Below the pieces are notes generated by a model. It was given only the letters and a program-made list of their open reading frames with translations, was not told the origin of the DNA and made no database searches. DNA of 64,000 nt from an uncultured bacterium (GTDB lineage: Bacteria; Patescibacteriota; Kazan-3B-28): assembly GCA_963695435.1 (NCBI GenBank), contig OY968788.1:54781-118780 (forward strand), read 5' to 3'. Both the position numbers and the translations under genes were made by a program. Below, piece by piece: positions 296 to 63,708 of the stretch (the first letter of the stretch is position 1; each line of letters starts with the position of its first letter).

Positions 296-435
296 TTCAG
301 TAGCGATTAATGGTTTGAAATGGGGCCCCCGAAATGATCCAGCGAAGCGAACATTTTGGGGAAAAGGAAGAGCGTTGAGCGAAAAAGCCGAGCAAGCTTG
401 TCGAGCTCGTGCGTAATGTGAAACTGCTCTGACGT
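296..435 (-). repeat. Inverted copy of the tRNA-trailer repeat element. It is about 85% identical, as a reverse complement, to 1284..1425.
   Basis: The reverse complement of 300-435 aligns with the segment after tRNA-Ser(CGA): ttcacRttacgcacgagctcgacaagctYgctcggc ... ccccaaaatgttcgctWcgctggaWcatttYgggg. Confidence 0.7.
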
Positions 436-525: not shown

Positions 526-707
526 CTGAAAATTCGGCGGGCTTGTCCCGACAAATTTTCAGTGAGGGGGCTGATGAGAACCCATGTGAAACATAGAGGG
601 TTCGCGCACGATGCCGCTCTATAAATTTGTTGTTTTCCATTAGGCGGCGAGTGAAGGGCCCCTGCAGCAAGCAGGGAAAATCTCCCGCCCTCTCTTTAAA
701 TATAAAA

Positions 708-1283: not shown

Positions 1284-1440
1284 CGTCGAAATGGCTTCAC
1301 GTTACGCACGAGCTCGACAAGCTCGCTCGGCTATTGGCGTTCAGCATTTCTCCTTTCCCCCAAAATGTTCGCTACGCTGGAACATTTTGGGGACCCCGTT
1401 TTAAGACTCCTTGGTTTGTGATTTTGGTTAGGCTACAAAT
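1284..1440 (+). repeat. tRNA-trailer repeat element. It begins cgtcgaaatggcttc and contains a 13-bp hairpin ccccaaaatgttc/gaacattttgggg, the block cagcatttctcctttc and the motif ttggtttgtgattttggtt.
   Basis: Related copies lie after the tRNAs at 46424, 40111, 46915-47042 (minus) and 526-625. An inverted copy lies at 296-435. Confidence 0.7.
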
Positions 1441-4855: not shown

Positions 4856-7168
4856 ATGAAAAAACTGATAATCACTAGTCTGGGGGTGTTTGTTGTAATG
4901 GCGGGTTCACTTATGACCTCGCCTAGTTTAGCAGTCGCGCAAGCGGCTGGGCTAAAAGCCGAGCTAGTTTCGGCCAACTCACCGATTACCGCTAAGGCGG
5001 GTACAGCTGTCGAATTTACGGTAGCAATCAAAAACATTGGCAGCACCACATGGACCAATAGTGGCAGTAACGCGGTGAATCTTGGGACTGTAAAACCGAT
5101 GGATCACAAAAGTCGGTTCGCAACTTCCGGCTGGATCGGAAACAACCGACCGGCAACAATGCAAGAAACAACAGTGGCGGCTGGAGAGACGGCGCATTTT
5201 AGATTTTTGGCAGCAGCAACTGGCAGTGGCAAGGTGACTGATTATTTTGGGTTGGTGATGGAGCGAGTGAGCTGGTTTAGTTTATCGATTCCCTTAACCA
5301 TCAATGTCCAGCCGGCAATTTTTAAGGGTGAATTGGTGGCTCAATCGGCAGCTAGTTTTGAATTGAAGACACAGGAAACTGTTACCGTTACAGTTCGTGT
5401 AAAAAATACAGGCGATGTGGCGTGGGCAAACAGCGGGGCAGGAGCAGTGAAGGTTGCAACTAGTAGCCCATTTGATAGAGCGAGCAATTTGTATCATTCG
5501 AGTTGGCTTAGCAAAAATCGAGCGGCGATGGCGAGTACGGTAATAGAATCGGGGGATGGGGGCGAGTTTACTTTTACGATTCAGGCTCCTAACAAGACAG
5601 GCATTTTTAAAGAAGAGTTTAGTTTGGTAGCGGAGGGAACGGCGTGGATACCGATAAAATTTTGGCTAACAGTGAAAGTAGTGCCTGCGGTGTGGTCGGC
5701 GGAGTTGGTTAACCAATCAACCAAAGTCGTGTCTTTGCCGCCGGAGGATACTGCTACTTTGTGGGCGGAGTTTAAGAATACTGGCAATACGACTTGGCGA
5801 GGAGATGGAGCCAACGCGGTTAAATTGGGGACAGCGCGTAAGTTAGATAGAGTCAGCGTATTCCAAGACAGTTCGTGGTTGAGCAAAAATCGAGTGAAGG
5901 CAATTAGTCCGGTGGAGATTGCCCCCGGAGAGACTGGGCGGTTTGAGTTTGCGATCAAAGCGCCTAATAATCTGGGGAAATATCAAGAATATTTTCGGCC
6001 AGTAGTCGAGGGGGTCACATGGCTTAATGACAGCGGTTTGACGTGGGAAATTACAGTAGAAGAAGAGCTAACTATTAAGGATCCAATTCGGGTTGGCATT
6101 GCTTCTACGGCTGACACGATTACGGTTCAGGGAAATAGTTTTGTAATTCGGCGGGGCAGCGACAAGGGATTGGTAAAGAAAGTATCGGGGGGCAGTGTGG
6201 TGGTGACGGCGTTCAATGGCGGGTATAGTTTGAATACGGGCGAGTCGGTAAATGATTGGCTAAGATTTATTCCGCTCAACAATGCGTTGCTGTCGGTTCG
6301 CACAAGCGGGATTGGCAGTAGTTACGATACATTCCGTGGGATTATTGATGTTCGGCGATCAAGTATGTCGGGTAATGTTTGGGTGGTGAATGTATTGGAG
6401 TTTGAAGATTATATGAAGGGGATTGCTGAAGTTCCGGAAGGCTGGCCGGCTGAAGCGCAGAAGGCGCAGATGGTGGCAGCGCGTACTTATGCTGTGACGA
6501 AGTTGAAGGCTCCGGTAGCTGACATTTTTGATATTTATGATGATACTCGGGATCAGGTTTATTACGGATACGATTATGAATCCAGCCGACCAGGACTAGT
6601 TGCGGCGGCGGAATCAACAAGAGGAATAATTATCAAATACAACGGTGTGCCAATCTCTGCTTATTATTTCTCGGACAGTGGCGGTTATACCGAAAATGTG
6701 GAAAATGTTTGGACGAAGACTATCCCGTATCTAAGAGCTGTGCCCGATCCGTATGCTAAGCCGATTGAATGGACGGCGACTTTGACCCAAGATTATTTGC
6801 AAGGTCGTTTTGATGAATCGCTGGATGTTGCTCCGGGCGCGGATGTGATTGTGGGCATTGCGGTAACCGAGCGGAATCCATCGGGCAGATTGAAAACGAT
6901 AACATTTACTATGCAAAGCGGTAAAGTTGTACCGATTTCGTCCAAGACATTTGATTATCTGACCAATGGCAATGAAGTTAAAAGCATGAAATTTGATGTT
7001 GTTGCTACTGGGGACCCCGCACGGCCAGACTTTATTTTTACCGGACAAGGTTGGGGTCATGGCGTGGGGATGGCGCAGTGGGGCGCGAAGAATATGGCTT
7101 TGCAGGGTAAAAATTATCAGGAAATTCTGACTTATTATTACACTGGTGTTACCGTCGGCTCTCGATAA
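4856..7168 (+). CDS. Secreted SpoIID/LytB-domain protein. Three N-terminal tandem repeats of about 120 aa with an Ig-like beta-sandwich are followed by a C-terminal SpoIID amidase-enhancer/lytic domain.
   Basis: The start is chosen at MKKLIITSL, with AAGGAG 9 nt upstream; the ORF track starts 9 codons earlier. The repeats read TVKV.NTG...W.NSG...LVAEG.AWI. The C-terminus has the SpoIID-type YYFSDSGGYTENVENVW. Confidence 0.8.
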   Translation: MKKLIITSLGVFVVMAGSLMTSPSLAVAQAAGLKAELVSANSPITAKAGTAVEFTVAIKNIGSTTWTNSGSNAVNLGTVKPMDHKSRFATSGWIGNNRPATMQETTVAAGETAHFRFLAAATGSGKVTDYFGLVMERVSWFSLSIPLTINVQPAIFKGELVAQSAASFELKTQETVTVTVRVKNTGDVAWANSGAGAVKVATSSPFDRASNLYHSSWLSKNRAAMASTVIESGDGGEFTFTIQAPNKTGIFKEEFSLVAEGTAWIPIKFWLTVKVVPAVWSAELVNQSTKVVSLPPEDTATLWAEFKNTGNTTWRGDGANAVKLGTARKLDRVSVFQDSSWLSKNRVKAISPVEIAPGETGRFEFAIKAPNNLGKYQEYFRPVVEGVTWLNDSGLTWEITVEEELTIKDPIRVGIASTADTITVQGNSFVIRRGSDKGLVKKVSGGSVVVTAFNGGYSLNTGESVNDWLRFIPLNNALLSVRTSGIGSSYDTFRGIIDVRRSSMSGNVWVVNVLEFEDYMKGIAEVPEGWPAEAQKAQMVAARTYAVTKLKAPVADIFDIYDDTRDQVYYGYDYESSRPGLVAAAESTRGIIIKYNGVPISAYYFSDSGGYTENVENVWTKTIPYLRAVPDPYAKPIEWTATLTQDYLQGRFDESLDVAPGADVIVGIAVTERNPSGRLKTITFTMQSGKVVPISSKTFDYLTNGNEVKSMKFDVVATGDPARPDFIFTGQGWGHGVGMAQWGAKNMALQGKNYQEILTYYYTGVTVGSR

Positions 7169-7841: not shown

Positions 7842-7879
7842 TTGCTATAATGCGGGAGTAGATTTTTTACAGGGAGTTT

Positions 7880-8650
7880 ATGACTATTCGAGTAAAAGCG
7901 CCAATGAGAGTCTGTTTTGGGGGAGGGCTTTTGGATATTTTCCCGATAAATGCGATTGTCGGAGGGTATACCGTAAATGCTGCAATTGATAAATTCGTCA
8001 CGGTTGAAATTGAAGACGGCGAAGGTTTGAAAATTAATGCCAGAAACGAAGAGCTTCCTGGGCTTCTGGCTGATATCTACAATCTAAAAAATAAAACCAT
8101 CACGATTAGCGAAGATGTTTTTGGGTTTAGAGGATTTGCCCAAAGTGCCGCTTTGGGAGTGGCACTAGGGTTTGCCGCGACCGGAGACAAGGAGACAGCG
8201 GCTCTGATTTCCTACGAAACAGAAAATAAGATTTTGGGAGTTATGGGCGGATACCAGGATCAAATTGCGGCGAGTAGAGGAGGTTTCAATATTATTACGA
8301 ATCGCGCCGGCGCCTACAGCGTAGAAACTCTGACTGATTTCAACCAAGATTTTCTGGAGAGAATAAAAAAAGCAATTCCGTTCTACTCCAAAGCATATGC
8401 CCATAGTGGATTGAAAAATGAGGAAGTGGTGGATAAGGTTGTGGCTGGGGACGAAGAAACTATTAGTATTCTAAAAGAGCTTCGTAACTGCACCGAACAC
8501 ATAGTGCAGGCTCTAAGAGAGCAAAATGCGGATGAATTTATCAAATGGTGTTTGGAAGAAAGGCGGCACCACGATAAATTGCGCCAACGCGAAGGCGAGC
8601 AGTTGGTGGGATACAACTTCGAGTTTGAGGGCGTAAGAAAAATAGACTAG
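7880..8650 (+). CDS. GHMP-kinase-like protein (sugar/mevalonate-kinase fold), function unknown
   Basis: The N-terminus RVCFGGGLLD and the block GGYQDQIAASRGG are present. The glycine-rich motif is weak. An AGGGAG ribosome-binding site precedes the ATG. Confidence 0.45.
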   Translation: MTIRVKAPMRVCFGGGLLDIFPINAIVGGYTVNAAIDKFVTVEIEDGEGLKINARNEELPGLLADIYNLKNKTITISEDVFGFRGFAQSAALGVALGFAATGDKETAALISYETENKILGVMGGYQDQIAASRGGFNIITNRAGAYSVETLTDFNQDFLERIKKAIPFYSKAYAHSGLKNEEVVDKVVAGDEETISILKELRNCTEHIVQALREQNADEFIKWCLEERRHHDKLRQREGEQLVGYNFEFEGVRKID

Positions 8651-9636
8651 CCGACCAACCCGATTTTCTTTTTGACTTCGGCAAGAGTTGGGTTAGCAAT
8701 GCGGGCAGCTTTGGCAGCGCCCGTTTTTAGGATTCGGTCGAGGAGACGGCGATTTTTCATGTAATGGTCGATTTTTTTCTGGATAGGCGCAAGAGAGGTG
8801 ACGACTAATTCAGCCAGCTCTTTTTTGAAATCGCCGTATCCTTTGCCCGCAAAATATTTTTCGATTTGGGACTCGGTTTTGCCCGAAAGCATTTGGTAGA
8901 TGGTGAGGAGATTGTACAATCCTTCCCGCTTAGGGTCGAATTTGATTGTACTGCCAGAATCGGTGACGGCTCGCATAATTTTTTTGCGGATAATTTCGGG
9001 GCTGTCGGTCAGGGCGATGTAACTCCCCGCAAGGTCGCTCTTACTCATTTTTCTACTCGGATTATCCAATGCCATAATGCGGGCACCAGTTTTGCCAATG
9101 ACGGGCTCGGGGACAATAAAAGTTTTTCCGAAACGATTGTTGAATCTCTCTGCTAGGTTGCGTGCCAGCTCAACATGCTGTTTTTGATCTTCGCCGACAG
9201 GAACGACTCCCGCTTGGTACAATAGAATGTCAGCGGCCATCAGCACGGGATAATCAAACAGTCCCACGGAAGTGTTGTCGGCGTTGCCCTTTTGAGACTT
9301 GTCTTTGTATTGAGTCATACGGGAAAGTTCGCCCATATGAGCGATGGTGTTAAGAACCCAAGCCAGCTCGGTGTGGGCGGGGACAGAAGATTGGGCGAAG
9401 ATAATAGATTTCCTGGGATCGATCCCGGAAGCTAGATAGATTGCTGTATTCAGGTAGGTACTCTCGGCTAATTCTTTCGGATCCTGTGGGACAGTAATGG
9501 CATGGAGGTCAACCACGCAAAAGATACTCTCATATTTGTGTTGAATTTCCACCCAAGGCAGGATTGCTCCGAGGTAATTACCAATGTGGATTACTCCGCT
9601 GGGTTGGATACCTGAAAAGGCGCGCTTCTTGGTCAT
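8647..9636 (-). CDS. trpS: Tryptophan--tRNA ligase
   Basis: The class I motifs HIGN (HIGH-like) and KMSKS are present in a TrpS-type architecture. Confidence 0.9.
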   Translation of the reverse strand: MTKKRAFSGIQPSGVIHIGNYLGAILPWVEIQHKYESIFCVVDLHAITVPQDPKELAESTYLNTAIYLASGIDPRKSIIFAQSSVPAHTELAWVLNTIAHMGELSRMTQYKDKSQKGNADNTSVGLFDYPVLMAADILLYQAGVVPVGEDQKQHVELARNLAERFNNRFGKTFIVPEPVIGKTGARIMALDNPSRKMSKSDLAGSYIALTDSPEIIRKKIMRAVTDSGSTIKFDPKREGLYNLLTIYQMLSGKTESQIEKYFAGKGYGDFKKELAELVVTSLAPIQKKIDHYMKNRRLLDRILKTGAAKAARIANPTLAEVKKKIGLVG

Positions 9637-9667
9637 AGATTGTGATAGTTAGTATCTTCAAGATAAC

Positions 9668-10600
9668 ATGAAAGTAATGGGCAAAAAACTGACGGGGGGA
9701 CGAGTAAGGCAACGATTGATACCCTTGGTTTTTTTTGGAGCTGATTACTCGGCTCGTGGGCGGACTCTAACGATACCGCAACTTCGCCGCTACGGTTGGC
9801 AGAGGGATTGGTCGTTTGAGGAGATAAAGGAAGCTCTGCAGGAGTTGGATTTGCCGAGTGTCGAAGGAACCTATTATTGGGGTGACCCGCGAAGTCGCCA
9901 GAGCGGTAATCCCGAGTTGGCTAAGAAATTCTGGCGGATGGCGAGAAAAAAAGTAAATTTATTCAGATGGATCCCCTTCGTCAAATTGGTAGGAGTGATG
10001 AACAGTTTGTCTCACGACAATGTTGGGAGGGATTCCGACATAGATTTCTTTATTGTGGCGAGGGAGGGGAGGATATGGACGGTGAGAGCAATAACATTGT
10101 GGCTTTTGAGGTTTCTTGGGTGGCGGGCAGGAAGACAAAAATATTTGAAAATTTCACCCGATTTGTTTTTGAGCGAGGACGGGATGGATTTATCCCAGGC
10201 CGGAATCCCCAACGATTATTTGCTGGCGTATTGGGCGTGCGATTTTATTCCGGTATACAAAGCGGAATTCTTTAGAAAGTTTTGGCAGGCAAATGCGTGG
10301 CTAAAAACGACCTTGCCTGTGGCGTATCGTTCACCCCAATACCGTCCGGAGGTGGAAGTGGGGGGCGGGTCACTTCGTTCCATCCTTTTGGTTGAAAAAA
10401 TGTTTGGTGGGAAATGGGGAGATAATATAGAAGCCAAGCTAAAACAAAAGCAATTGGGTATTATTGATAGGAATGTGAAGAAGCTCGGGCAGAACCCGTT
10501 AGCGCTGGCGAACGACAGAATAGTAAAGATCCATTTTGGCGATGACAAAAGATATCATCTTAGGGCAGTGGTGGAAGAGTTCTTGGCTGAAGAGGTTTGA
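9668..10600 (+). CDS. Pol-beta-superfamily nucleotidyltransferase-domain protein of unknown function
   Basis: The motif NSLSHDNVGRDSDIDFFIV fits the [GS]S..G..SD[IV]D minimal nucleotidyltransferase signature. The remainder has no recognisable domain. Confidence 0.5.
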   Translation: MKVMGKKLTGGRVRQRLIPLVFFGADYSARGRTLTIPQLRRYGWQRDWSFEEIKEALQELDLPSVEGTYYWGDPRSRQSGNPELAKKFWRMARKKVNLFRWIPFVKLVGVMNSLSHDNVGRDSDIDFFIVAREGRIWTVRAITLWLLRFLGWRAGRQKYLKISPDLFLSEDGMDLSQAGIPNDYLLAYWACDFIPVYKAEFFRKFWQANAWLKTTLPVAYRSPQYRPEVEVGGGSLRSILLVEKMFGGKWGDNIEAKLKQKQLGIIDRNVKKLGQNPLALANDRIVKIHFGDDKRYHLRAVVEEFLAEEV

Positions 10601-11867
10601 GCAGGGGGTTTTGTGGTTGACGGTTTTTATGCTGCCCTGGCAATTGCGGCATACTTTTTGCTTCGCGAGTTACGGCGGAAATTACTTTGAGTATTCTTCG
10701 ATCCAGTTGTACGCTACCGATCTTTTGATCGTTGTTTTGTTGGTTCTTTGGATTCTGCGCTGGCCGAAACTGCAGTTACCTGCCAAATGGGTTTGGCAGC
10801 CCTTGGTTCTCTGGCTGGTTTGGATAACAGTTTCCGGTTGGTACGGGTTGGACTGGCAGAATAGCTTACAACAGTCGGTTCATTACTGGCTGATGTTCGG
10901 GTGGCTTCTGTACCTATTTAATAATGTGAAAGATTTGAGGCAGATATTTTGGCCATTTGTTTGGGGAGTGGCGCTTCAGGCAGTTTGGGGGATAGCGCAG
11001 TTTATAGGGAATCATGATTTGGGAATGCAGATTTTGGGTGAGTCGCCATTGGGGCCAAATCAAGGTGGAGTAGCGGTCGTGGGGGACGAAGCGCATCGGC
11101 AAATCAGAGCGCAGGGGTTGTTGCCGCATCCAAATATGTTGGGAGGATTATTGGTATTTTCTATTTTGCCACTGGTTCAGCTGTATCGTGACGCAAGTAA
11201 AAAACAAAAGTACTGGTTGTTAGCGGTTGCGGGGTTGGTGGGGGTGGCATTAGTGTTGTCATTTTCACGGACGAGCTGGGTAGTCGCGCTAATAATAATG
11301 TTGGTGATGGTTTTGGTTGCGATATTTAGAAAACGCGAAAGGTTTATTTGGCTCCCATTAGTAGCTTTGCTTTTGGGGGCAGGGGTAGCTGTGGGGTGGC
11401 AGTGGTCAAATGTGACAGGGAGATTTTCGACCGAATCACGGCTGGAACAAAAATCGGTGGAGGATAGGGTGGGGAGCCTGGGTGATTGGGGAAAAATTAT
11501 TAGCGGTCACGAATTTGCGGGGGTGGGTACTGGCAACTATACTCAAGCACTAATACAACTGAAGCCAAACCAGAAAGTCTGGACTTACAAACCAATACAC
11601 GATATCTATTTGCTGATAACAGCAGAAACGGGAGCGGTGGGGTTAGCGATCTGGCTATGGATGATGTTTGTGGTTGGGTGGCTTTGGCTCAAGCTTATTA
11701 GGCAGAACTGGGCAAATTGGTGGCTGGGGCTGCCGTTAATTGGGATATTGGGGGCGGGGGTAGTAGATCATTGGGCGGTATCTTTTCAGCAAGGAAGGTT
11801 GTTGTTCTTTCTGGCTCTGGCATTGATTATTTTAGAATCTAAGGTATTATTGGAGCGACAGGAGTAA
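10542..11867 (+). CDS. O-antigen ligase/Wzy_C-family polytopic membrane protein
   Basis: About 10 transmembrane segments are predicted. The loop SFSRTSWVVALI is typical of Wzy_C/WaaL. The start is uncertain: an ATG at 10542 overlaps the upstream gene by 59 nt, and a TTG near 10611 has an AGGGGG ribosome-binding site. Confidence 0.6.
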   Translation: MTKDIILGQWWKSSWLKRFEQGVLWLTVFMLPWQLRHTFCFASYGGNYFEYSSIQLYATDLLIVVLLVLWILRWPKLQLPAKWVWQPLVLWLVWITVSGWYGLDWQNSLQQSVHYWLMFGWLLYLFNNVKDLRQIFWPFVWGVALQAVWGIAQFIGNHDLGMQILGESPLGPNQGGVAVVGDEAHRQIRAQGLLPHPNMLGGLLVFSILPLVQLYRDASKKQKYWLLAVAGLVGVALVLSFSRTSWVVALIIMLVMVLVAIFRKRERFIWLPLVALLLGAGVAVGWQWSNVTGRFSTESRLEQKSVEDRVGSLGDWGKIISGHEFAGVGTGNYTQALIQLKPNQKVWTYKPIHDIYLLITAETGAVGLAIWLWMMFVVGWLWLKLIRQNWANWWLGLPLIGILGAGVVDHWAVSFQQGRLLFFLALALIILESKVLLERQE

Positions 11868-13777: not shown

Positions 13778-16147
13778 GTGGCAGAAGAAAAATACGATCA
13801 CAAACTGATTGAGCCGAAATGGCAAAAATACTGGGCAGATAACCAGATTTTTAAGGCGATTGATGGGGACAAAAAAGCGAAGTATTACGCTTTGGATATG
13901 TTTGCCTACCCATCAGGAGATGGGTTGCACACAGGGCACCCTAGAAGCTACACGGCGACTGATATTTTTGCGCGCTACTATCGGATGAAGGGCTACAATG
14001 TGATGCGGCCAATTGGGTGGGATGCGTTTGGGCTCCCTGCGGAAAACTATGCGATCAAAAAAGGTGTACATCCAAGTAAGACTACTGCGGACAATATTGC
14101 GAACTTTACTCGACAGGTAAAGTCGTTTGGTTTTGCCTACGATTGGGGCAGGGAGGTGAATACTGCCGATCCAAATTATTACAAATGGACGCAGTGGGTT
14201 TTTAAAGTTTTGTATGACAACGGATTGGCTTATCAAAAAGAGGCGTATGCCAACTGGTGTCCAAAAGACCAAACAGTACTTGCCAACGAGCAGGTGGTGA
14301 ATGGTTGTTGCGATCGGTGCGGGGCACAAGTGGAACAAAAGAAACTGAAGCAGTGGTTTTTCAAAATCACAGATTTCGCTGAAGAGCTTTTGGCAGGACT
14401 GGATAAAATCGACTGGCCTGAATCCACAAAGACGGGACAGCGAAACTGGATTGGAAAAAGTGAAGGAGCGGAAATCGCATTCGCGATTAGCGGGTCAGCG
14501 GGTCAGCAGGTCAGCGGGTCAGAAATTAGAGTGTTTACGACTAGGCCGGATACATTGTTTGGGGCGACTTACTTAGTATTGGCGCCGGAGCATGAATTAG
14601 TAGAGAAGCTCACGACTGCGGAGCAGAAAAAGGCGGTTGAAAAATATGTAGCCGACACCAAGTTAAAGACCCATTTGGATAGAACGATGGCGAAGGATAA
14701 GACAGGCGTGTTTACGGGCAGTTTTGCTATCAACCCGGCGACTAAAAAAGAAATTCCAATTTGGATAGCCGATTATGTTCTGACCGATTATGGCACGGGT
14801 GCGATTATGGCGGTGCCGGCGCATGATGAACGAGATTTTGATTTTGCTAAAGAGTTTAAATTGCCAGTGGTGCAGGTTATTCAATCGGACGAGAAACTTT
14901 ACACGGGGGATGGTTCATTAATGAATTCGGGTGAGTTTGACGGACAAGACTCTAAAACGGCTGGACCAAAGATGGCGAAAAAGTTTGGAGGGGAAATAAC
15001 CGTTCAATATAAATTGCACGATTGGCTGATTTCTCGTCAGCGTTATTGGGGAGCTCCGATTCCAATTGTTTATTCTGCAGACGGGGAGACTCAAAGTGTA
15101 GCGGTGGAAGATTTGCCGGTGATATTGCCCAGTGATGTTGATTTCAAACCAACGGGCGAATCGCCATTGGCGAAGTCTAAAACTTTCCAAACGGGGGTTG
15201 AAGAAAAATACGGCAAGGGCGCCAAAAGGGAACTAGATACAATGGATACTTTCGTTTGTTCGTCATGGTATTATTTGCGTTACTGCGACTCCAAAAACGC
15301 TCAAGAATTTGCGGGTAAAAAATCCTTGAAATACTGGATGCCGGTGGATTTGTATATTGGTGGGGCAGAGCATACCAATGGGCATTTGTTGTATGCAAGA
15401 TTTATTACCAAGGTTTTGCACAAACTCGGTTATTTGGATTTTGATGAGCCGTTTTTGAAACTGCGTCATCAAGGATTGGTGCTTGGAAGTGACGGGGAAA
15501 AAATGAGCAAATCCAGAGGAAATGTGATTAATCCTGACGATTTGATTGAACAATATGGCGCTGACACAGTGCGGATGTATGAAATGTTTATGGGGCCGTT
15601 TGACCAGCCCATTGCTTGGGATACTAATGGGGTGGTGGGAGTACGGAAGTTTTTGGACCGAGTGTACCGAATTATTAGTGAGAGAGCAGGTATAAAAGGA
15701 AAGCAAAATGACAATATCCATGGATTGATAAAGAAGGTGACCGAGGATATCGGGGTGATGAAGTTTAATACGGTAGTGAGTAGCTTTATGGAATTTACCA
15801 ATGAGGTTTCCAAAGACGATAGTAGTAATTGGCTCCCAGACTTTGTGAAACTTTTGAGCCCGTTTGCTCCGCACTTGGCAGAAGAATTATGGCAAGAAGT
15901 TTTAGGTCAGAAGGGTAGTGTCTCAGAAGCTTCATGGCCGGAATTTGATGAAGCCAAAACGAAAGCAAAAACAGTCACTATTGCGGTGCAAGAAAAAGGA
16001 AAACTGCGTGGAACGGTCGAGATGCCAGCAGGGGCGAGTGAGACTGATGTTTTGGTAGAAGTTAATAAAAATGAAAAACTGGCAGGCATCACCAAGGCTA
16101 GTTCCAAACATATTTTTGTGAAGGATAGGATTATTAATTTTATTTAG
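13778..16147 (+). CDS. leuS: Leucine--tRNA ligase
   Basis: It has a GTG start. The sequence PYPSGDGLHTGHPRSYTATD carries the HIGH-region motif HTGH, and KMSKS is present. The editing domain is short. Confidence 0.9.
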   Translation: MAEEKYDHKLIEPKWQKYWADNQIFKAIDGDKKAKYYALDMFAYPSGDGLHTGHPRSYTATDIFARYYRMKGYNVMRPIGWDAFGLPAENYAIKKGVHPSKTTADNIANFTRQVKSFGFAYDWGREVNTADPNYYKWTQWVFKVLYDNGLAYQKEAYANWCPKDQTVLANEQVVNGCCDRCGAQVEQKKLKQWFFKITDFAEELLAGLDKIDWPESTKTGQRNWIGKSEGAEIAFAISGSAGQQVSGSEIRVFTTRPDTLFGATYLVLAPEHELVEKLTTAEQKKAVEKYVADTKLKTHLDRTMAKDKTGVFTGSFAINPATKKEIPIWIADYVLTDYGTGAIMAVPAHDERDFDFAKEFKLPVVQVIQSDEKLYTGDGSLMNSGEFDGQDSKTAGPKMAKKFGGEITVQYKLHDWLISRQRYWGAPIPIVYSADGETQSVAVEDLPVILPSDVDFKPTGESPLAKSKTFQTGVEEKYGKGAKRELDTMDTFVCSSWYYLRYCDSKNAQEFAGKKSLKYWMPVDLYIGGAEHTNGHLLYARFITKVLHKLGYLDFDEPFLKLRHQGLVLGSDGEKMSKSRGNVINPDDLIEQYGADTVRMYEMFMGPFDQPIAWDTNGVVGVRKFLDRVYRIISERAGIKGKQNDNIHGLIKKVTEDIGVMKFNTVVSSFMEFTNEVSKDDSSNWLPDFVKLLSPFAPHLAEELWQEVLGQKGSVSEASWPEFDEAKTKAKTVTIAVQEKGKLRGTVEMPAGASETDVLVEVNKNEKLAGITKASSKHIFVKDRIINFI

Positions 16148-28838: not shown

Positions 28839-28902
28839 GTTTTTCTTTTTCTGTCATGCTTGAGCGAAGCGAAGCATCTATAATGATGTTTCTTTTTGTT
28901 TT

Positions 28903-29105
28903 CAAGGGTCTCCGCGACCCTTGTATCGCGGTTACTTTGTCTTGTCAAAGTAACCAAACCGTCCCGCCAGTCGCTTTCGCTATTCATCTAATAAAATTAG
29001 CTTTCTGACTTACGGCGAACTCCTCCTTGTCAGTCGTCAAACAGCGCCTTCGTCAGCGCTAATTTTATTGATTCATTACACTCAAGCTCCAATGGCGGAT
29101 GGGAG
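28903..29105 (+). repeat. Intergenic structured repeat element, copy 1 of 3. Two leader hairpins are followed by a core of about 140 nt closed by long-range pairing, ending ctcaagctccaatggcgg.
   Basis: The core 28963-29105 is about 92% identical to 60727-60860. The hairpins 28903-28960 match 34963-35020. Confidence 0.7.
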
Positions 29106-29282
29106 ACAAAAAACAAGTGGATTGTTTCGAATCCGCTATATAGAGAAGGTATGTGCTGCAACTAGTGGGCGACTAGCCGCCTATTTGTCCACCATTAAGT
29201 ATCATTTTGGCTCCTGTAATTCATAGAACAGTATAAGATACTGACATAATAACATATGTCTAAGGGCGAAAAGTGAGCTGAC

Positions 29283-34962: not shown

Positions 34963-35190
34963 CAAGGGTCTGCGCGACCCTTGTACCGCGGTTACTTTGT
35001 CTTGTCAAAGCGACGGAAACCGCTTGCCCACGTCGTCGGGCTTATTCATTGGATAAATTACCTTACCGCTTAAAGGGCAAACTCACCCGATAGCCATCGG
35101 GTTCAAACATGCCCCCGCGACGGCAATTTATCTCAATTCAGGACAGCCCTCCTCCTATGGCATGAAGACAAAAGCTCCAATGGTGGGGAG
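34963..35190 (+). repeat. Intergenic structured repeat element, copy 2 of 3 (divergent copy)
   Basis: The leader hairpins ggtctgcgcgaccc and ggttactttgtcttgtcaaag match copy 1. In the core, the closing stem arms are replaced by different but still complementary sequences (ggataaattacc / ggcaatttatct). The 3' end is aagctccaatggtgggg. Confidence 0.55.
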
Positions 35191-35244
35191 GAGAAAACAG
35201 GTATAATATGGTCAGTTAGGGGGCGGTATAGTTTTAACATTCGC

Positions 35245-38280: not shown

Positions 38281-39957
38281 ATGGCGAGCAAAAAAACTGC
38301 TCCAAAAAAGAAAGCAGCCCCTCGCGTGGCGGGTAAACGGGCGGTGGCTCGGAAACGGGTGACCGTCGGGAAAAAGCCGGCGAAAAGTAAGCAGGTCAGC
38401 AGGTCAGCAGGTAAGCGGGCAAGTAATAAAAAAGTAGTGAAAAAAATGGCAAAGAAGAAACCGATTAGAAAACCGGCTCCAAAAAAGACCGCCCCTAAAC
38501 GGGCAGGTAAAAAACGGGTGATTAAGAAAAAGCCGGCAAAAAAATTGGTAAAGAAAGTATCAAAGAAAAAGCCGGCAAAAAAGATAGTAAAGAAGAGACC
38601 GATAAAAAAGGCTGTTAAGAAGAAACCAGCGAAGAAACTGAAGCCGAAGAAGTCGGTAAAGAAACCGTTGAAGAAGCTAGCAAAGAAAGTTGCTCCTAAG
38701 AAGGTAAGTAAAAAACGCAAATCAGAAGCAGAAGAATTGCTCGGAGAGCCAAGACCAGAAGAACCAAAACTCAAGATATTTGAGATTGAGGATGAAGACG
38801 AAATTGCCAAAAAAAGGAAACGCAAAGAATCTGGTATTGGTAAGCTCCCGGGGCCGGTAGCGGATTTGGTATCCGCCGGTAAGGCAAAAGGCTTTATCAC
38901 TCAACAAGAACTAGAGCAGGCGGTCCCGAATGTGGAAAAGCAAATCGAAATGCTTGATTTGTTGTTCCAGATTTTGATGGAAGAAGGAATTGAGGTGGTA
39001 GATGTTCGGGACGATCTGATCTGGGCATTGGCCGGGGACAGTAAGCTAAGCAAGAAAACTGAAGCCACTAAGAAAAAAATGCGGAACAAGCTGGATGTGA
39101 ATATCGATCCGCACTTGTTGGAAGATGACATCAGTGATGACTCGGTAAGGATGTATCTGAAGGAAATCGGACAGGTGCCGTTGCTTCGAGCCGAAGAAGA
39201 AGTCGCGTTGGCAAAACGAGTGGAAATGGGTGATGTGCTGGCGTCCAAACAGTTGGCGGAAGCAAACTTGCGGTTGGTTGTATCGATTGCCAAAAAATAT
39301 ATTGGCCGAGGATTGTCGCTTTTGGATTTGATTCAGGAAGGCAACATCGGTTTGATGAAAGCGGTGGAGAAATTTGACTGGCGACGAGGATTCAAATTCT
39401 CAACTTACGCGACTTGGTGGATTCGTCAGGCCATTACTCGCGCCATTGCCGACCAAGCTCGAACAATTCGTATCCCGGTGCACATGGTAGAAACGATGAA
39501 CAGGCTTTCTCGTACTCAACGGCAATTGGTGCAAGAGCTTGGGCGTGAGCCGACTCCAGAAGAAATTGCCAATGAAATGGAATTGGAAGTTGAAAAAGTT
39601 AACCACATTCTAAAGATTTCGCAGGAGACTGTATCTTTGGAAAAGTCGGTCGGTGACGAAGATGACTCTTTGCTTGGTGACTTTATTCAAGATGAAGATA
39701 GTCTGACGCCGGAAGAAGCTTCGGCTTACGAACTTCTGAAAGGTGATGTGGGCGGAGTACTTGATTTGTTGTCGCCAAGAGAGCAAAAGATTCTGAAGTT
39801 GCGATTTGGTCTTGGCGGCGAGTGGGCACACACGCTGGAGGAAGTAGGTAAAGAATTCGGAGTCACTCGTGAGCGTATTCGTCAGATCGAAGCTAAGGCA
39901 CTAATGAAATTGCGCAAGAGCAAAGACAGTAAGAAGTTGAAAGATTATTTGAAGTAA
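38281..39957 (+). CDS. rpoD: RNA polymerase sigma factor RpoD (sigma70) with a roughly 170-aa lysine-rich N-terminal extension of histone-H1-like AKKPAKK repeats
   Basis: The region 2 motif is [30 protein letters not shown]. The region 4 motif is [15 protein letters not shown]. The dnaG-rpoD order is conserved. Confidence 0.9.
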
Positions 39958-39993: not shown

Positions 39994-40068
39994 TCCGGGG
40001 TAGCTCAGTGGTAGAGCGGTCGACTGTTAATCGATTGGTCGTGGGTTCGAATCCCACCCCCGGAGCCA
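39994..40068 (+). tRNA. tRNA-Asn (anticodon GTT)
   Basis: The acceptor stem is tccgggg/ccccgga with a U1:A72 pair. The anticodon loop is cuGUUaa. CCA is encoded. Confidence 0.8.
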
Positions 40069-40073
40069 GAAAA

Positions 40074-40110
40074 AAGTCCGCGAGTCTTCGCGGGCATTTT
40101 TCTTTTTCGG
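40074..40110 (+). terminator. Rho-independent terminator
   Basis: The stem ccgcga/tcgcgg with loop gtct is followed by atttttcttttt. Confidence 0.7.
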
Positions 40111-40310
40111 GGTGAGGGTTTGAACCCATGCGAAGCACAAAGGGTTCGTGCATGATGCTGCTTAGTCTCCAAAGGAGACGACTATAATATTTGTTGGGTA
40201 TACCTTATTGCAGCGAATGGCGGGGCCCCACAGTAGTGGGGAAACAATTCCCACCCCACTTGGTTTGTGATTTTGGTTGGGGAAAACAATTCCCACTCCC
40301 GGAGAACTAG
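40111..40310 (+). repeat. tRNA-trailer repeat region
   Basis: It contains the hairpin motif gaacccatgcgaagcacaaagggttcgtgcatgatgctgc, which also occurs at 580-622 and as a reverse complement at 46905-46925. It also contains ttggtttgtgattttggtt, flanked by 20-bp direct repeats ggggaaacaattcccacYcc. Confidence 0.6.
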
Positions 40311-43296: not shown

Positions 43297-43359
43297 CTAT
43301 GGGGTTTATCGCTAAAGAGGCGGTGGCTTTTGTGTGATAATAGGGACGAAAGGAGTTAT

Positions 43360-43581
43360 ATGAAGAAAATATTTCTTTGGGGCGGGTTAGTTGGCTTTAT
43401 CGTCTTTTTCCTGTTGGGATTTTTGGCGGGGGCAACTAATGGTCCTGATAATCAGCCGGTTTTTGCGTTAGTCTATGGTACTAACCAGGTTCTCTGGGCA
43501 TTCCTTGGTCTTGTTTTCGCAATTCTTTTCATCATCGGTTTAGTGATGGTGATTGTTGGTGCGATAAAGAGACGCAAATAG
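43360..43581 (+). CDS. Small (73 aa) two-transmembrane membrane protein
   Basis: AAGGAG precedes the ATG. The start MKKIFLWGGLVGF and the end IIGLVMVIVGAIKRRK are recognisable. It is a paralog of the next ORF. Confidence 0.55.
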   Translation: MKKIFLWGGLVGFIVFFLLGFLAGATNGPDNQPVFALVYGTNQVLWAFLGLVFAILFIIGLVMVIVGAIKRRK

Positions 43582-43637
43582 TAGGGGATAGATAATTCTC
43601 TTAGATATTAGAATGACTGTTTGGTAAAAGGATTTTT

Positions 43638-43853
43638 ATGAAAAGAACATTTCTTTGGGGTGGGTTGATTGGTTTTGCCGTATTTTTTCTGATAGGACTT
43701 CTAACCAGCACATCAAACAATGGACCGTCCATATTACCTCTCACTTGTGATTCAAAAGGTTTGATATGGGTTCTCTTTGCTCTTGTTGGCGCTGTATTTT
43801 TCCTGATTGGCTTGGTGATGGTGATTGTTGATGTGATAAAAAGACGCAAGTAG
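43638..43853 (+). CDS. Small (71 aa) two-transmembrane membrane protein (paralog)
   Basis: MKRTFLWGGLIGFAVFFLIGLL...LIGLVMVIVDVIKRRK is about 60% identical to 43360..43581. Confidence 0.55.
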   Translation: MKRTFLWGGLIGFAVFFLIGLLTSTSNNGPSILPLTCDSKGLIWVLFALVGAVFFLIGLVMVIVDVIKRRK

Positions 43854-46347: not shown

Positions 46348-46423
46348 GGGCCCGTAACTCAGTGGTTAGAGTAGTCCCCTCATAAGGGATTAGTCCTTGG
46401 TTCGAATCCAAGCGGGCCCACCA
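46348..46423 (+). tRNA. tRNA with CAT anticodon, probably tRNA-Ile2 (lysidine tRNA) or an elongator Met
   Basis: The acceptor stem gggcccg/cgggccc is fully paired. The anticodon loop is cuCAUaa. The D-arm resembles E. coli tRNA-Ile2. CCA is encoded. Confidence 0.75.
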
Positions 46424-46556
46424 CGGCGTCGAAATGGCTTCGCTCGACGCGCGAGCAAAACAGGTTTGCTCGGCTAATGAAGCTCAGCATTTCTCCTTTC
46501 AAAATTACAAACACTTCGTTGGTTTACAATTTTGGTTAGAGACAAAGACTTAGTAT
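46424..46556 (+). repeat. tRNA-trailer repeat element
   Basis: It begins cgtcgaaatggcttc as at 1284. It shares gctcggctaAtg and cagcatttctcctttc with that copy and carries the variant motif ttggtttacaattttggttag. Confidence 0.65.
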
Positions 46557-46907: not shown

Positions 46908-46914
46908 TGGCATC

Positions 46915-47042
46915 GTGCGCGGACTCAAACCAAAATCACAAACTAACGAAGTGTTTGTGATTTTGAAAGGAGAAATAACGAGACCCAAAAGCAACCCCGA
47001 GCCTGTCGAGGGCGTTAGCGTAAAGTCGAGTTTATTTCGACG
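46915..47042 (-). repeat. tRNA-trailer repeat element (minus strand, behind the initiator tRNA)
   Basis: The reverse complement reads atttctcctttcaaaatcacaaacacttcgttagtttgtgattttggtttgagtccgcgcacgatgccac. It forms an inverted repeat with 46480-46556. Confidence 0.65.
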
Positions 47043-47118
47043 TGGTTGCGGGGGTGAGATTCGAACTCACGACCTTCAGGTTATGAGCCTGACGAGCTAG
47101 CCACTGCTCTACCCCGCG
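47043..47118 (-). tRNA. Initiator tRNA-fMet (anticodon CAT)
   Basis: A C1xA72 mismatch is present (5' cgcgggg, 3' ccccgca + a + cca). The anticodon arm ucaggcuCAUaaccuga is E. coli tRNAfMet-like. Confidence 0.8.
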
Positions 47119-47152
47119 AGCCAATGTTAGCAATTCAGCTCATATCTGTCCA

Positions 47153-47217
47153 CCCCGTAGAAGAAATTTAATCGCGCTTTGCGCACCAGTCGAAGACATT
47201 AAATTTTCTCTACGGGG
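47153..47217. repeat. Conserved long palindromic hairpin (20-bp arms ccccgtagaagaaatttaat / attaaattttctctacgggg), copy 1
   Basis: The same arms, with a different loop, occur at 63603-63679. On the minus strand it immediately precedes a candidate promoter for the initiator tRNA (TGGACA, 17 nt, TAACAT). Confidence 0.6.
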
Positions 47218-47227
47218 TCCACCCCTA

Positions 47228-47653
47228 TCAAGCGACTTCGTGCAAACCGAGTATCAATCTCCACCATTTTTCGGGGTTGGTTGGTTCCTTTGGAACGGTT
47301 TTTGTTTGGTCTTGGATGTTACCTTCTGTAAATCTTTCAATGTCTTCGTTGGGAATTATCAGCACAGTTTCTCCAACTTTCTGGTAGTTCAGTTTTTCCC
47401 TTGCTTCCTTATCTTTGAAAGCATCTGTTTGGCGGTAGGCGATTAGATTTTGCAGATATTTGTTGTGTAATTTGAGGTCAGCGTTTTCCTGTCTTAGTTG
47501 AGTCAGCTCTTTATCTATTTGATAATTTTGCCAAATTGCTTGAATGGTTGAAACTACCATATATACCAAAAGGATTGCCCCCATGGTCATCAATAGTCTC
47601 GCACGCAATTCCTTGCCCTGCGGTAACTTAATTTTTCCTGATAGCTTGTTCAT
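47228..47653 (-). CDS. ftsB: FtsB/DivIC-like septum formation initiator (short N-terminus, one transmembrane segment, coiled coil)
   Basis: LRARLLMTMGAILLVYMVV is the transmembrane segment. A Q/L-rich coiled coil follows (LTQLRQENADLKL). The start is placed at MNKLSGK; the ORF track's TTG start would overlap the upstream tRNA. Confidence 0.6.
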   Translation of the reverse strand: MNKLSGKIKLPQGKELRARLLMTMGAILLVYMVVSTIQAIWQNYQIDKELTQLRQENADLKLHNKYLQNLIAYRQTDAFKDKEAREKLNYQKVGETVLIIPNEDIERFTEGNIQDQTKTVPKEPTNPEKWWRLILGLHEVA

Positions 47654-52396: not shown

Positions 52397-52594
52397 AGCA
52401 ATGGAAGAAGAAGAGTGAGGAATTTTTGGACAAACGAAAAGGGCTACCGAGTGGTAGCCCTGCGGAATTTAACCGCTACTATCCAGTAAGGAAGGGGGTC
52501 CTTACAAGAAGCAAAGGTTCAGAACTGACCATAGGGTCAGAGTTTCGCCAAACTTTGAAGTCTGGCTGAATAATAGAAAAGAAAAAAGGACAAA

Positions 52595-52683
52595 GTACCC
52601 GGCGAGACTCGAACCCGCTTCCTTCTGGATCCCTAAGTATCTGGGTGTAGCCAGACGCTCTAGCCCAATTGAGCTACGGGTAC
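52595..52683 (-). tRNA. Atypical tRNA-like gene with unresolved isotype. The acceptor, D and T arms are canonical, the anticodon-loop candidate is CUACACC and there is a 21-nt extra region. No CCA is encoded.
   Basis: The reverse complement is gtacccg-ta-gctc-aattgggcta-gagc-g-tctgg-ctacacc-ccaga-tacttagggatccagaaggaa-gcggg-ttcgagt-ctcgc-cgggtac. Confidence 0.45.
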
Positions 52684-60650: not shown

Positions 60651-60666
60651 TTTTTTATTTTCTTTT

Positions 60667-60860
60667 TAAGCGCTCGCGCCGCGCTTAGACTGGCGGTGTC
60701 TTTTCTAGAAAAGACACCCAAAAGTCCCCGCCAGTCGCTTTCGCTATTCATCTAATAAAATTAACTTTCTGACTTACAGCGAACTCGCTACGCTCAAACA
60801 GCGCCTTCGTCAGCGCTAATTTTATTGATTCAGTACACTCAAGCTCCAATGGCGGATAGA
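60667..60860 (+). repeat. Intergenic structured repeat element, copy 3 of 3
   Basis: The core 60727-60860 is about 92% identical to 28963-29105. It is preceded by two different hairpins (aagcgctcgcgccgcgctt; ggtgtcttttctagaaaagacacc). Confidence 0.7.
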
Positions 60861-60953
60861 GAAATAATAAAAAATTAGTAAGCTTTACTTTTGGGATTTT
60901 TTCTGGCATGCTGTGGTCAGTTAATTTCCGCCTTAAAAAGCTATTATTAATCT

Positions 60954-63589: not shown

Positions 63590-63602
63590 TAGCCCCTATT
63601 GA

Positions 63603-63679
63603 CCCCGTAGAAGAAATTTCATTGGGCTTTCGCCTTTATATCCCTCTTGAGGGGGATATATGAAATTTTCTCTACGGGG
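63603..63679. repeat. Conserved long palindromic hairpin (arms ccccgtagaagaaatttcat / atgaaattttctctacgggg), copy 2, abutting the rRNA promoter -35
   Basis: It has the same 20-bp arms as 47153-47217. The loop contains the second palindrome ccctcttgaggggg. Confidence 0.6.
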
Positions 63680-63708
63680 TTGACAGGGGGCAGGGTGGGG
63701 CTTAGAAT
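63680..63708 (+). promoter_or_regulatory. rRNA operon promoter: TTGACA, 17 nt, TAGAAT
   Basis: The sequence ttgacagggggcagggtggggcttagaat lies about 200 nt upstream of the 16S 5' end. Confidence 0.6.

Follow-up and report, generated by a model that had tools for sequence, protein, structure and literature searches.

Structured gene-less insertions flanking tRNA genes in a small Patescibacteria clade, and their possible origin as tRNA-homing elements

Several tRNA genes of one uncultured bacterium are accompanied by the same sequence blocks, which raises the question of what these blocks are and how they came to lie there. The bacterium belongs to the lineage Kazan-3B-28 of the Patescibacteriota (assembly GCA_963695435.1), and the DNA that we analyzed, hereafter the window, is a stretch of 64,000 nucleotides of its contig OY968788.1 (positions 54,781 to 118,780 of the forward strand). 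The starting point was the region at 1284-1440, directly behind the gene of tRNA-Ser(CGA). An initial annotation, made from the letters of the window, had described a single family of trailer elements to which this region belongs. The repeats are real, but two families, which we call type A and type B, had been merged in that description. As detailed below, both are insertions at tRNA ends, and type A has a conserved fold of three helices.

The window contains ten tRNA genes and the initial 92 nt of a 16S rRNA gene. When its 64 kb were scanned with the individual blocks, TTGGTTTGTGATTTTGGTT (allowing up to three mismatches) was matched at four places, 1411, 40260, 46519 and, on the minus strand, 46928, against 0.09 matches expected. 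For GGGTTCGCGCACGATGCCGC, three matches were obtained (598, 40142 and, on the minus strand, 46907) against 0.00 expected, and for CCACGTCGAAATGGCTTC two against 0.05; the three matches of CAGCATTTCTCCTTTC against 0.88 expected are weak taken alone. The blocks lie where the initial annotation had located them and nowhere else in the 64 kb, far beyond chance according to the expectations per block. The inverted copy that it had reported is also present: it occupies 314-435, between tRNA-Arg and tRNA-Ser(GCT), with its tRNA-proximal end facing the 5′ end of tRNA-Ser(GCT), and is 84% identical to 1296-1397 over 102 nt (E 3e-14). This copy is not located 3′ of a tRNA, so that five tRNAs, and not the at least six that had been claimed, have an element on their 3′ side. 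The trailer proposed for the atypical tRNA at 52594-52683 was not found, since neither family occurs there. The reported similarity of 75-90% holds for individual blocks, but the whole type A copies of the window are 51-81% identical.

The separation into two families came from alignment and profile searches; the only parts common to types A and B are the distal TTGGTTTGTGATTTTGGTT block and a CGCGCACGATGCC block. A covariance model of type A, built from ten copies and run on the whole window with its filters off, returned four type A copies only (95-134 bits), and the next best match reached 13.9 bits. The features of the window that concern both families are the following.

314-435, minus strand: type A, reversed, in the spacer between tRNA-Arg and tRNA-Ser(GCT), with its CGTC end 1 nt from the start of tRNA-Ser(GCT) at 436; 133.9 bits
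436-525, plus strand: tRNA-Ser(GCT), with type A inverted on its 5′ side and type B on its 3′ side
526-697, plus strand: type B, after tRNA-Ser(GCT) 436-525; first hairpin 526-562, inverted tRNA-end-like strand 564-571
1284-1404, plus strand: type A, the starting element, flush with the CCA of tRNA-Ser(CGA) 1192-1283; 128.7 bits
1410-1432, plus strand: distal block CTTGGTTTGTGATTTTGGTTAGG, which stands alone here
40069-40306, plus strand: type B, after tRNA-Asn 39994-40068; bidirectional terminator hairpin 40076-40095
46427-46550, plus strand: type A, 3 nt past the CCA of tRNA-Met (46348-46423); 110.6 bits
46566-46907, plus strand: ORF113, a predicted small membrane protein of 113 aa with no Pfam match, between two inverted type A copies
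46915-47042, minus strand: type A, flush with the CCA of the minus-strand tRNA-Met/fMet (47043-47118); 94.7 bits

The block CTTGGTTTGTGATTTTGGTTAGG forms, in the Met and fMet copies, the 3′ arm of an alternative version of hairpin 2, and the 46915-47042 copy ends distally (46908-46925) in what is left of the type B core (gtccgcgcacgatgcca). Neither A nor B was found 3′ of tRNA-Ala, tRNA-Ser(GGA) or the second tRNA-Met.

Type A does not code for protein and measures about 115 nt. The alignment of ten independent copies, taken from five genomes, spans approximately 120 nt, and the structure was obtained with RNAalifold. In helix P1, the five bases after the CGTC start (GAAAT in the 1284-1404 copy) pair with the start of the CATTTCTCCTTTC block. 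Hairpin 1 is wholly different in sequence among copies, with 5-7 pairs always formed, and hairpin 2, of 13 bp, has either of two sequences, ccccaaaatgttc or caaaatcacaaac, around a conserved CTTCG(C/T)T loop. In the starting element, P1 corresponds to 1288-1292/1346-1350, hairpin 1 to approximately 1308-1326 and hairpin 2 to 1358-1370/1380-1392; the copy at 46427-46550 carries hairpin 2 in its second version (caaaattacaaac / gtttacaattttg). The unpaired blocks are conserved, and within them a TCCT core is invariant.

Of the cells evaluated in this alignment, 92.5% are paired versus 74.0% after shuffling, and the covariation score was 0.570 versus 0.237; none of 500 shuffles reached the observed value in either case. 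Double changes were observed in 18 of the 27 pairs, including five of the six pairs of P1, and sliding the partner by 1-3 columns reduced the pairing to 31-54%. The variants of P1 illustrate this behavior (GAAAT/ATTTC, AGAGC/GCTCT, GAAGC/GCTTC, AAAAT/ATTTT, GGAAT/ATTCC, GAAAC/GTTTC and GCAGT/GCTGC, and in later copies GAATG/CATTC and AGGAT/ATCCT). The single-sequence z-scores of the 1284-1404 copy are modest (−1.9 on the given strand and −2.0 on the reverse); therefore, the structure rests on the comparative evidence. The fold of type A is maintained by compensatory changes, which support all three helices. The internal secondary structure noticed in the initial annotation, together with which an alignment and a search for compensatory changes had been suggested, is thus real and covarying in the RNAalifold and shuffle analyses.

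A scan against Rfam 15 reported at the gathering score only the tRNAs and the 16S start, and nothing credible at E ≤ 5 over 200-1500; no intrinsic terminator was predicted in 1284-1440. A promoter inside A was also considered and discarded, as no sigma-70-like match with proper spacing was detected and the actual −10 boxes are found upstream of the leader copies. The list of open reading frames (ORFs) has entries over the elements (245-466 on the minus strand, 1193-1456 and 46915-47100 on the plus strand). A coding role of A or B was rejected: the reverse-strand frames that start from AAGGAG...ATG are not conserved, and, given that the indels are not multiples of three and that hairpin 1 is replaced wholesale, A is not coding.

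The position of type A relative to tRNA genes was evaluated with 13 independent copies from seven genomes. In 11 of them, 0-3 nt separate the CGTC end from the end of an intact tRNA, and the remaining two lie directly behind displaced fragments of a tRNA 3′ end. Eight of the 13 follow a tRNA in direct orientation, and the other five precede one, inverted; the junction read on the element strand is CCA/CGTC in ten. In the window, the four A and two B copies all adjoin a tRNA end. Only about 80 of the 128,000 position-strand combinations of the window (hand arithmetic) lie 0-3 nt from a tRNA end and face away from it, so the location of four of four A copies at tRNA ends is not due to chance. 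All copies of type B are at tRNA 3′ ends. Two further readings were tried and rejected, the second of them as a general role. A flip of the tRNA by recombination through its acceptor arm could account for the 5′ copies, but the leftover TGGC that it predicts between A and the tRNA is absent. The inverted repeats 314-435 and 1284-1404, which enclose tRNA-Ser, tadA and tRNA-Ser, could form a leader-trailer processing stem, but the corresponding copies in the relative L029 are direct repeats.

The nearest named relatives of the window are metagenome-assembled genomes labeled "Patescibacteria group bacterium" and "Candidatus Saccharibacteria bacterium UBA5145"; sequences of relatives are designated here by L numbers. 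Through homologs of TadA, the tRNA-Arg/tRNA-Ser(GCT)/tadA/tRNA-Ser(CGA) locus was reached in five lineages. L036 and L038, with a TadA 68-70% identical and the same gene order, are devoid of A and B: the CCA of tRNA-Arg directly meets G1 of tRNA-Ser(GCT), leaving a spacer of 0 nt, tadA is found 12 nt after tRNA-Ser(GCT), and tRNA-Ser(CGA) is directly followed by the terminator of the neighboring gene. L029 (TadA 82%) retains the inverted A before tRNA-Ser(GCT), and its positions 10473-10874 align with 315-692 of the window at 77%. On the 3′ side of this tRNA, L029 has a different insert with a degenerate GIY-YIG ORF. Its tRNA-Ser(CGA), which in the window has A on the 3′ side, is flanked by an inverted A on the 5′ side and by B on the 3′ side, the same layout that surrounds tRNA-Ser(GCT) in the window. 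In L032 and L035, a direct A lies in the Arg-Ser spacer after a duplicated stretch of the Arg 3′ end (33 nt), and the 2.6-kb island inserted after tRNA-Ser(GCT) ends in a "...ccgcca" remnant with a second A behind it. L034 has A between tRNA-Thr and tRNA-Pro.

A comparable diversity was observed around the tRNA-Met genes. Between the convergent tRNA-Met and tRNA-fMet, L073 has only a 28-nt terminator hairpin, whose place is occupied in the window by a 619-nt A-ORF-A block. L074 has one truncated A at this locus, on the fMet side, and L075 has a homolog of ORF113 together with type B on the fMet side. This homolog (88% identity, same locus) is the only one found and, since B replaces A next to it, ORF113 is not a constant cargo of type A. 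In L076, an inverted A lies between a TATAAT box and tRNA-Met; behind another tRNA-Met, A is joined through a linker to the distal half of B (B′). In this composite, A is tRNA-proximal, and the far end is a repeat of the tRNA T-stem strand with eight of nine positions matching (tcctgttgc vs tcctgtcgc; hand count). In L001 (UBA5145), A is located 5′ of a tRNA-Met, and 17 nt of the fMet 3′ end are duplicated.

The covariance model of A recovered the held-out L076 copies at 66.5 and 60.5 bits, as well as the truncated copy of L074, and had no match in the sequences from L036, L037, L038, L072, L073 and L075. A 19-mer scan of species genomes gave mostly chance matches and one true relative, L001, and a scan of metagenomes gave one contig only. 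The search in genomes of the same lineage, which the initial annotation had also proposed, showed A or B at tRNA ends in some of them and empty sites in others. Since the same tRNA sites are empty in sister genomes, A and B are insertions at tRNA ends; they turn over, given that the occupant, the tRNA side and the orientation differ between close relatives, and they are not basic tRNA-processing signals, because sister genomes lack them. Both families are confined to a small clade of ultra-small Patescibacteria (Saccharibacteria-like), in which they are found flush at tRNA ends.

Type B is about 165 nt in size and ends with a copy of the 3′ end of its own tRNA. Four copies located behind four tRNAs were aligned (tRNA-Ser(GCT) and tRNA-Asn of the window, tRNA-Ser(CGA) of L029 and tRNA-fMet of L075), and a core of about 130 nt aligns well among them. 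The order of its parts is a hairpin right after the CCA, an inverted tRNA 3′ end, three helices and a direct tRNA-end repeat. In the copy at 526-697, the helices are gaaccc 578-583/gggttc 598-603, 607-617/644-653 and ccctgc 660-665/gcaggg 671-676, and the direct repeat of the tRNA 3′ end (tcccgccctctc) is at 683-694. In the copy at 40069-40306, the inverted copy of the tRNA 3′ end is at 40109-40128 (20 of 25 positions match by hand count; the best segment of the aligner is about 19 nt), followed by a partial tRNA-end repeat at 40248-40257, an A-type distal block at 40260-40280 and a second tRNA-end repeat at 40291-40304 (tcccactcccggag). The first hairpin at tRNA-Asn is a canonical terminator on both strands, and it is the only terminator-like part of either family. 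Compensatory changes are present in two of the three helices, one of them changing from TGCCGC/GCGGCG to TGCTGC/GCAGCG and the other from CCCTGC/GCAGGG to CCCTGT/ACAGGG or CCCCAC/GTGGGG. The far end of B repeats the T-stem and acceptor strand of whichever tRNA precedes it:

tRNA-Ser(GCT) of the window: tcccgccctctc, 12 of 12 positions matching
tRNA-Asn of the window: tcccactcccggag, 13 of 14
tRNA-Ser(CGA) of L029: tcccaccctca, 11 of 11
tRNA-fMet of L075: tctcacccccgc, 10 of 12 (hand count)

As the inverted and the direct tRNA-end copies can pair with each other, they make up the stem that closes B.

Selection was evaluated by comparing the window with L029 at the orthologous A copy located 5′ of tRNA-Ser(GCT), using six shared genes as reference. 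The two A sequences are identical at 108 of 114 positions (94.7%) with no indel, while the six genes show 78-85% DNA identity and only 53.9% of their four-fold degenerate sites are identical. The rest of the Arg/Ser-GCT spacer is not alignable. This A copy is either under purifying selection or was recently exchanged along with the tRNA.

Regarding the origin of these elements, on balance we lean toward the idea that A and B are gene-less miniature insertion elements that homed to tRNA gene ends and were then retained in tRNA transcripts as leader or trailer. Among the roles that the initial annotation had contemplated, relics of an element that targets tRNA genes is the one that fits best, in view of the empty orthologous sites, the turnover of occupant and side, and the tRNA-end repeats that bound B and one A+B′ composite. 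A recombinase supplied in trans would place the elements at the base of the acceptor stem, creating the CCA/CGTC junction. A and B may be related to decayed integrative elements that retain only their att-proximal arms, resembling the cis-mobilizable elements (CIMEs) considered below, with A as the tRNA-proximal arm and B′ as the distal arm. The absence of a terminator between the CCA and A suggests that transcription of the tRNA continues into the 3′ copies, making them a trailer, and the position of A between a −10 box and the tRNA in L029 and L076 suggests that the 5′ copies are part of the leader; −10 boxes are found upstream of the A-containing leaders. Being trailers and leaders, they would have to be removed by the normal tRNA-end nucleases. 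Some copies could now be useful to the host, and a compact fold by the cleavage site may be the selected trait; a self-contained fold located 4-5 nt from this site would work on either strand, which may explain why the hairpins are kept both ways.

Several observations weigh against homing by a recombinase in trans. Pfam scans of about 40 proteins of the window and 10 neighboring ORFs of relatives detected no integrase, transposase or other recombinase. A full-length parent did not emerge either: block scans of viral contigs gave only chance matches without the rest of the element, and blastn against phage genomes gave none. To our knowledge, tRNA-targeting integrases do not use 5′ ends in mirror orientation. 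A alone has neither a flanking repeat nor terminal inverted repeats, and B has two features that a simple att crossover does not predict, namely a repeat whose end is 3-6 nt away from the CCA and the accompanying inverted tRNA-end copy. The G-U pairs of A are as common on one strand as on the other (27 vs 29), which favors no particular strand, whether of RNA or of DNA. Paralogous A copies are 45-85% identical, which indicates that the family is old and has not undergone a recent burst of transposition, and the high conservation of the one orthologous copy would fit a purely host-encoded functional element as well. In addition, the DNA examined comprised 64 kb of a 560-kb contig and approximately 100 kb from relatives.

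Alternatively, A could be a structured element of a kind not described before that recognizes the base of the acceptor stem by itself, inserts on the 3′ side of the stem on either DNA strand under the guidance of its own three-helix fold (as single-stranded DNA or RNA), and was later co-opted in the tRNA transcript. Such insertion would generate direct 3′ copies, mirror 5′ copies and the CCA/CGTC junction in both, and we keep it open, as a possible but doubtful route, on account of the lack of a recombinase and of a repeat at A, the mirror copies at 5′ ends, the geometry of the B repeats and the equal number of G-U pairs. A mobile origin would not be required at all if A and B were host leader, trailer or spacer modules that isolate the folding of the tRNA, direct RNase P or 3′ processing, or arrest read-through, and that were spread among tRNA loci by recombination. 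This agrees with the covarying fold, the location of the elements inside tRNA transcription units, the bidirectional terminator formed by the first B hairpin at tRNA-Asn, the 94.7% identity of the orthologous copy versus 54% at neutral sites, and the age and divergence of the paralogs, which are unlike an active transposon family. Nevertheless, we regard it as unlikely, since close relatives with identical tRNAs and gene order manage without the elements, and for this same reason the initial proposal of tRNA 3′ processing or termination modules finds no support as a general role. Moreover, A lies 3′ of a given tRNA in one genome and, reversed, 5′ of it in another, so that the RNA produced from the reversed copy would be the complement. 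Nor does termination suit A, which has no terminator signature and also occurs reversed at tRNA 5′ ends; only the B hairpin at tRNA-Asn resembles a terminator. The tRNA-specific repeats at B, finally, point to an insertion event.

The same fold could instead belong to a small-RNA gene, represented by A and perhaps by the core of B, whose ends would be made by RNase P or RNase Z at the adjoining tRNA or at its tRNA-like antisense, and whose working part would be the unpaired invariant UCUCCUUUC (anti-Shine-Dalgarno-like) or its complement. The three helices, the TCCT core, the conserved loop, the 13 of 13 A copies flush with tRNA ends and the copy under purifying selection are all compatible with such a gene, and by single-sequence energy the reverse strand of A folds slightly better in 10 of 12 copies. 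However, the counts of G-U pairs single out no RNA strand, the tRNA promoters would transcribe the 3′ and 5′ copies as opposite strands, the reverse strand of 1284-1404 has upstream of it the terminator of a pilin gene and no promoter-like site, and no Rfam family matches; we find a small-RNA gene improbable. Small RNAs co-transcribed with the tRNAs, which the initial annotation had also contemplated, are a candidate role in view of the strong covariation and the copy under purifying selection, but the equal G-U counts lend no preference to either strand. We give very little credence to the idea that A and B are passive by-products of break repair or homing at tRNA genes, in which cuts by GIY-YIG enzymes, followed by ectopic repair or fold-back synthesis, would move the flanks and create the tRNA-end copies of B. 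GIY-YIG ORFs do adjoin tRNA-Ser(CGA) in L037 and tRNA-Met in L072, L029 has a degenerate one with 17-bp inverted ends after tRNA-Ser(GCT), the inverted tRNA 3′ end of B forms a palindrome around the first hairpin, and the ends of the repeats are ragged, 3-6 nt short of the CCA. In contrast, the scan of the window proteins revealed no GIY-YIG gene, nhmmer detected nothing in common between A or B and the GIY-YIG cassettes, and the covarying fold of A and its selection would be left unexplained.

The elements were also compared with systems described previously. CIMEs are decayed integrative elements that keep attL and attR at a tRNA 3′ end (PMC5704250). Type B and the A+B′ composite of L076 resemble them in being gene-less, in lying at a tRNA 3′ end with a tRNA-end repeat on the far side, and in their tandem or nested arrangements (the two repeats after tRNA-Asn; the 58-nt insert and the island of L032). 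Unlike CIMEs, the elements described here measure only 115-280 nt, and the window, the neighboring ORFs and the viral and phage collections yielded no related parent with an integrase. In addition, the B repeat falls short of the CCA and has an extra inverted tRNA-end copy, no repeat accompanies A where it stands alone, and 5 of 13 A copies precede a tRNA in mirror orientation; covarying hairpins are also present in both arms, although att arms, being double-stranded, have no need of them. The CIME concept is the best partial fit for B and for the A+B′ composite, and type A is an unusual member among the small non-coding elements at tRNA integration sites.

As miniature inverted-repeat transposable elements are, A and B are small, non-coding and multicopy (four A and two B in 64 kb), but the helices of A are internal, its termini (CGTCGAAAT... 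and ...GGGGACCCC or ...TTTTGGTTAG) show no complementarity, no target duplication is present at any A, and the repeats of B are 9-14 nt long, of variable extent and accompanied by the inverted copy. Repetitive extragenic palindromic (REP) sequences with their bacterial interspersed mosaic elements (BIMEs) and the enterobacterial repetitive intergenic consensus (ERIC) are small non-coding modular hairpin repeats of transcribed intergenic DNA, found in either orientation, variable in presence and absence, and with copies that are sometimes conserved. A and B share with them their small size, modular or mosaic build, hairpins, either orientation and differences in presence or absence. Each REP/BIME unit is 20-40 nt long, imperfectly palindromic and headed by a conserved GT(A/G)G; the units usually come in pairs, in genomes that have a RAYT gene. 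In contrast, A has no GTAG-headed unit and is not one overall palindrome, and its apparent copy number is low and its location strictly at tRNA ends; no REP unit is visible in the A and B alignments, and scanning the window proteins revealed no Y1 or RAYT domain.

Non-autonomous elements of the IS200/IS605 type (palindrome-associated transposable elements) and the attC sites of integrons lack inverted ends and target duplication; they have subterminal hairpins conserved in structure rather than in sequence, and one end that abuts a fixed short target. Type A likewise lacks terminal inverted repeats and target duplication, has hairpins near both ends and abuts its target at CCA/CGTC. It is only formally compatible with the IS200/IS605-type elements, as its two hairpins are unrelated to each other and the third, long-range helix P1 is foreign to that family; neither a Y1 transposase (TnpA) nor an integron integrase was found in the window. 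Insertion in that family is biased to one replication strand, whereas the orientation of A relative to the direction of replication deduced from the GC skew of the window is 2:2 (a small sample). In eukaryotes, the sigma elements of yeast Ty3 and the TRE5 and TRE3 of Dictyostelium are retrotransposons inserted at fixed positions up- or downstream of tRNA genes that leave solo remnants. The fixed position relative to tRNA genes, on either side, and the small solo remnants are similar; however, those elements are guided by the RNA polymerase III machinery, which is absent in bacteria, and nothing retroelement-like was seen here. The RNAs of tRNA 3′ external transcribed spacers (3′ETS), such as 3′ETS-leuZ of E. 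coli, are locus-specific processed spacers. A 3′ copy of A is also directly 3′ of a tRNA, is predicted to be co-transcribed with it and could be released by processing, but those spacers are not repeated or insertion-polymorphic, nor are they inverted at 5′ ends as A is.

Other observations concern the tRNA genes of the window and its relatives. The gene tadA, for tRNA(adenine34) deaminase (708-1172), is within a tRNA cluster that starts at tRNA-Arg(ACG) (213-289), which we presume to be the TadA substrate; the order tRNA-Ser(TGA), ORF157, tRNA-Arg(ACG), tRNA-Ser(GCT), tadA and tRNA-Ser(CGA) is kept in all relatives examined. Free-standing GIY-YIG ORFs of 86-88 aa lie directly against tRNA ends in L037 (3999-4265) and L072 (5134-5394). 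In L029, inverted repeats of 17 bp (tccttcgctaaagctac) enclose the degenerate GIY-YIG ORF (approximately 9572-9990), and tRNA-Ser(TGA) is followed by the same 30-nt trailer. The ends of tRNA genes are thus a general landing site in this clade. The 2.6-kb island of L032 (7240-9858, between tRNA-Ser(GCT) and tadA) includes about 1 kb that is geneless and highly structured-looking and three small unannotated ORFs; it has no Rfam match at the gathering score, and a 110-nt stretch of it (7876-7990) recurs directly after the CCA of tRNA-Ser(CGA) at 10578. In L072, a second tRNA (5497-5574) is located right after tRNA-Met and is called tRNA-Ile with anticodon TAT by ARAGORN; this anticodon is unusual in bacteria. 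The atypical tRNA of the window (52594-52683, minus strand) scores 51 bits with the Rfam tRNA model, encodes no CCA, has a long extra arm and an anticodon loop CTACACC, and cannot be named by ARAGORN. The matching position is occupied by an ordinary tRNA-Ile(GAT) in L073 and by another unnamed tRNA in L074, and about 150 nt downstream of the atypical tRNA are conserved with L073.

Additional repeats were found in the window. A third intergenic family of about 220 nt (28889-29110, 34963-35200 and 60653-60866; 73-98% identity, no Rfam match) has one copy just upstream of tRNA-Ser(GGA) and the other two away from tRNAs. A palindromic element (ccaccccgtagaagaaattt... / ...aaattttctctacggggt) with TTGAC(A)-like hexamers is present at 47146-47230, upstream of the minus-strand tRNA-fMet and overlapping the predicted promoter TGGACA-17-TAACAT, and at 63593-63689, where the 16S rRNA start lies about 220 nt downstream; a promoter or UP module common to stable-RNA genes is a possible role. 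Tandem 8-nt repeats (AGCGGGTC / AGCAGGTC) occur within two different coding regions (14481-14542 and 38382-38435), and two adjacent paralogous small ORFs (43349-43581 and 43627-43853; 77-78% DNA identity) encode short hydrophobic proteins. The proteins of the window are of the housekeeping type (LeuRS, DnaE, NusA, ClpB, DnaG, RpoD, FtsH, DnaK and others). All 2-kb bins of 1-64000 have a positive GC skew (0.12-0.32), and the plus strand carries nearly all long genes, which denotes a strong strand asymmetry of composition and gene orientation.

In practical terms, the A and B models are markers of one specific clade of Patescibacteria, and they flag sites where annotation will mis-call short ORFs. 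tRNA genes are classic integration sites, whose usual occupants are large islands with an integrase, inserted at the 3′ end. The occupants described here are tiny, gene-less and strongly covarying, are found at both tRNA ends in mirror orientation, and reside in streamlined genomes with little spare DNA. If insertion beside the acceptor stem were guided by structure, it would represent a new way of targeting tRNA genes in bacteria, and if A targeted the stem through its own fold, it would be a bacterial counterpart, with a different mechanism, of the eukaryotic elements that target tRNA genes. If the elements are retained for the folding or maturation of the tRNA transcript, they would show mobile DNA becoming RNA-processing signals in reduced genomes.

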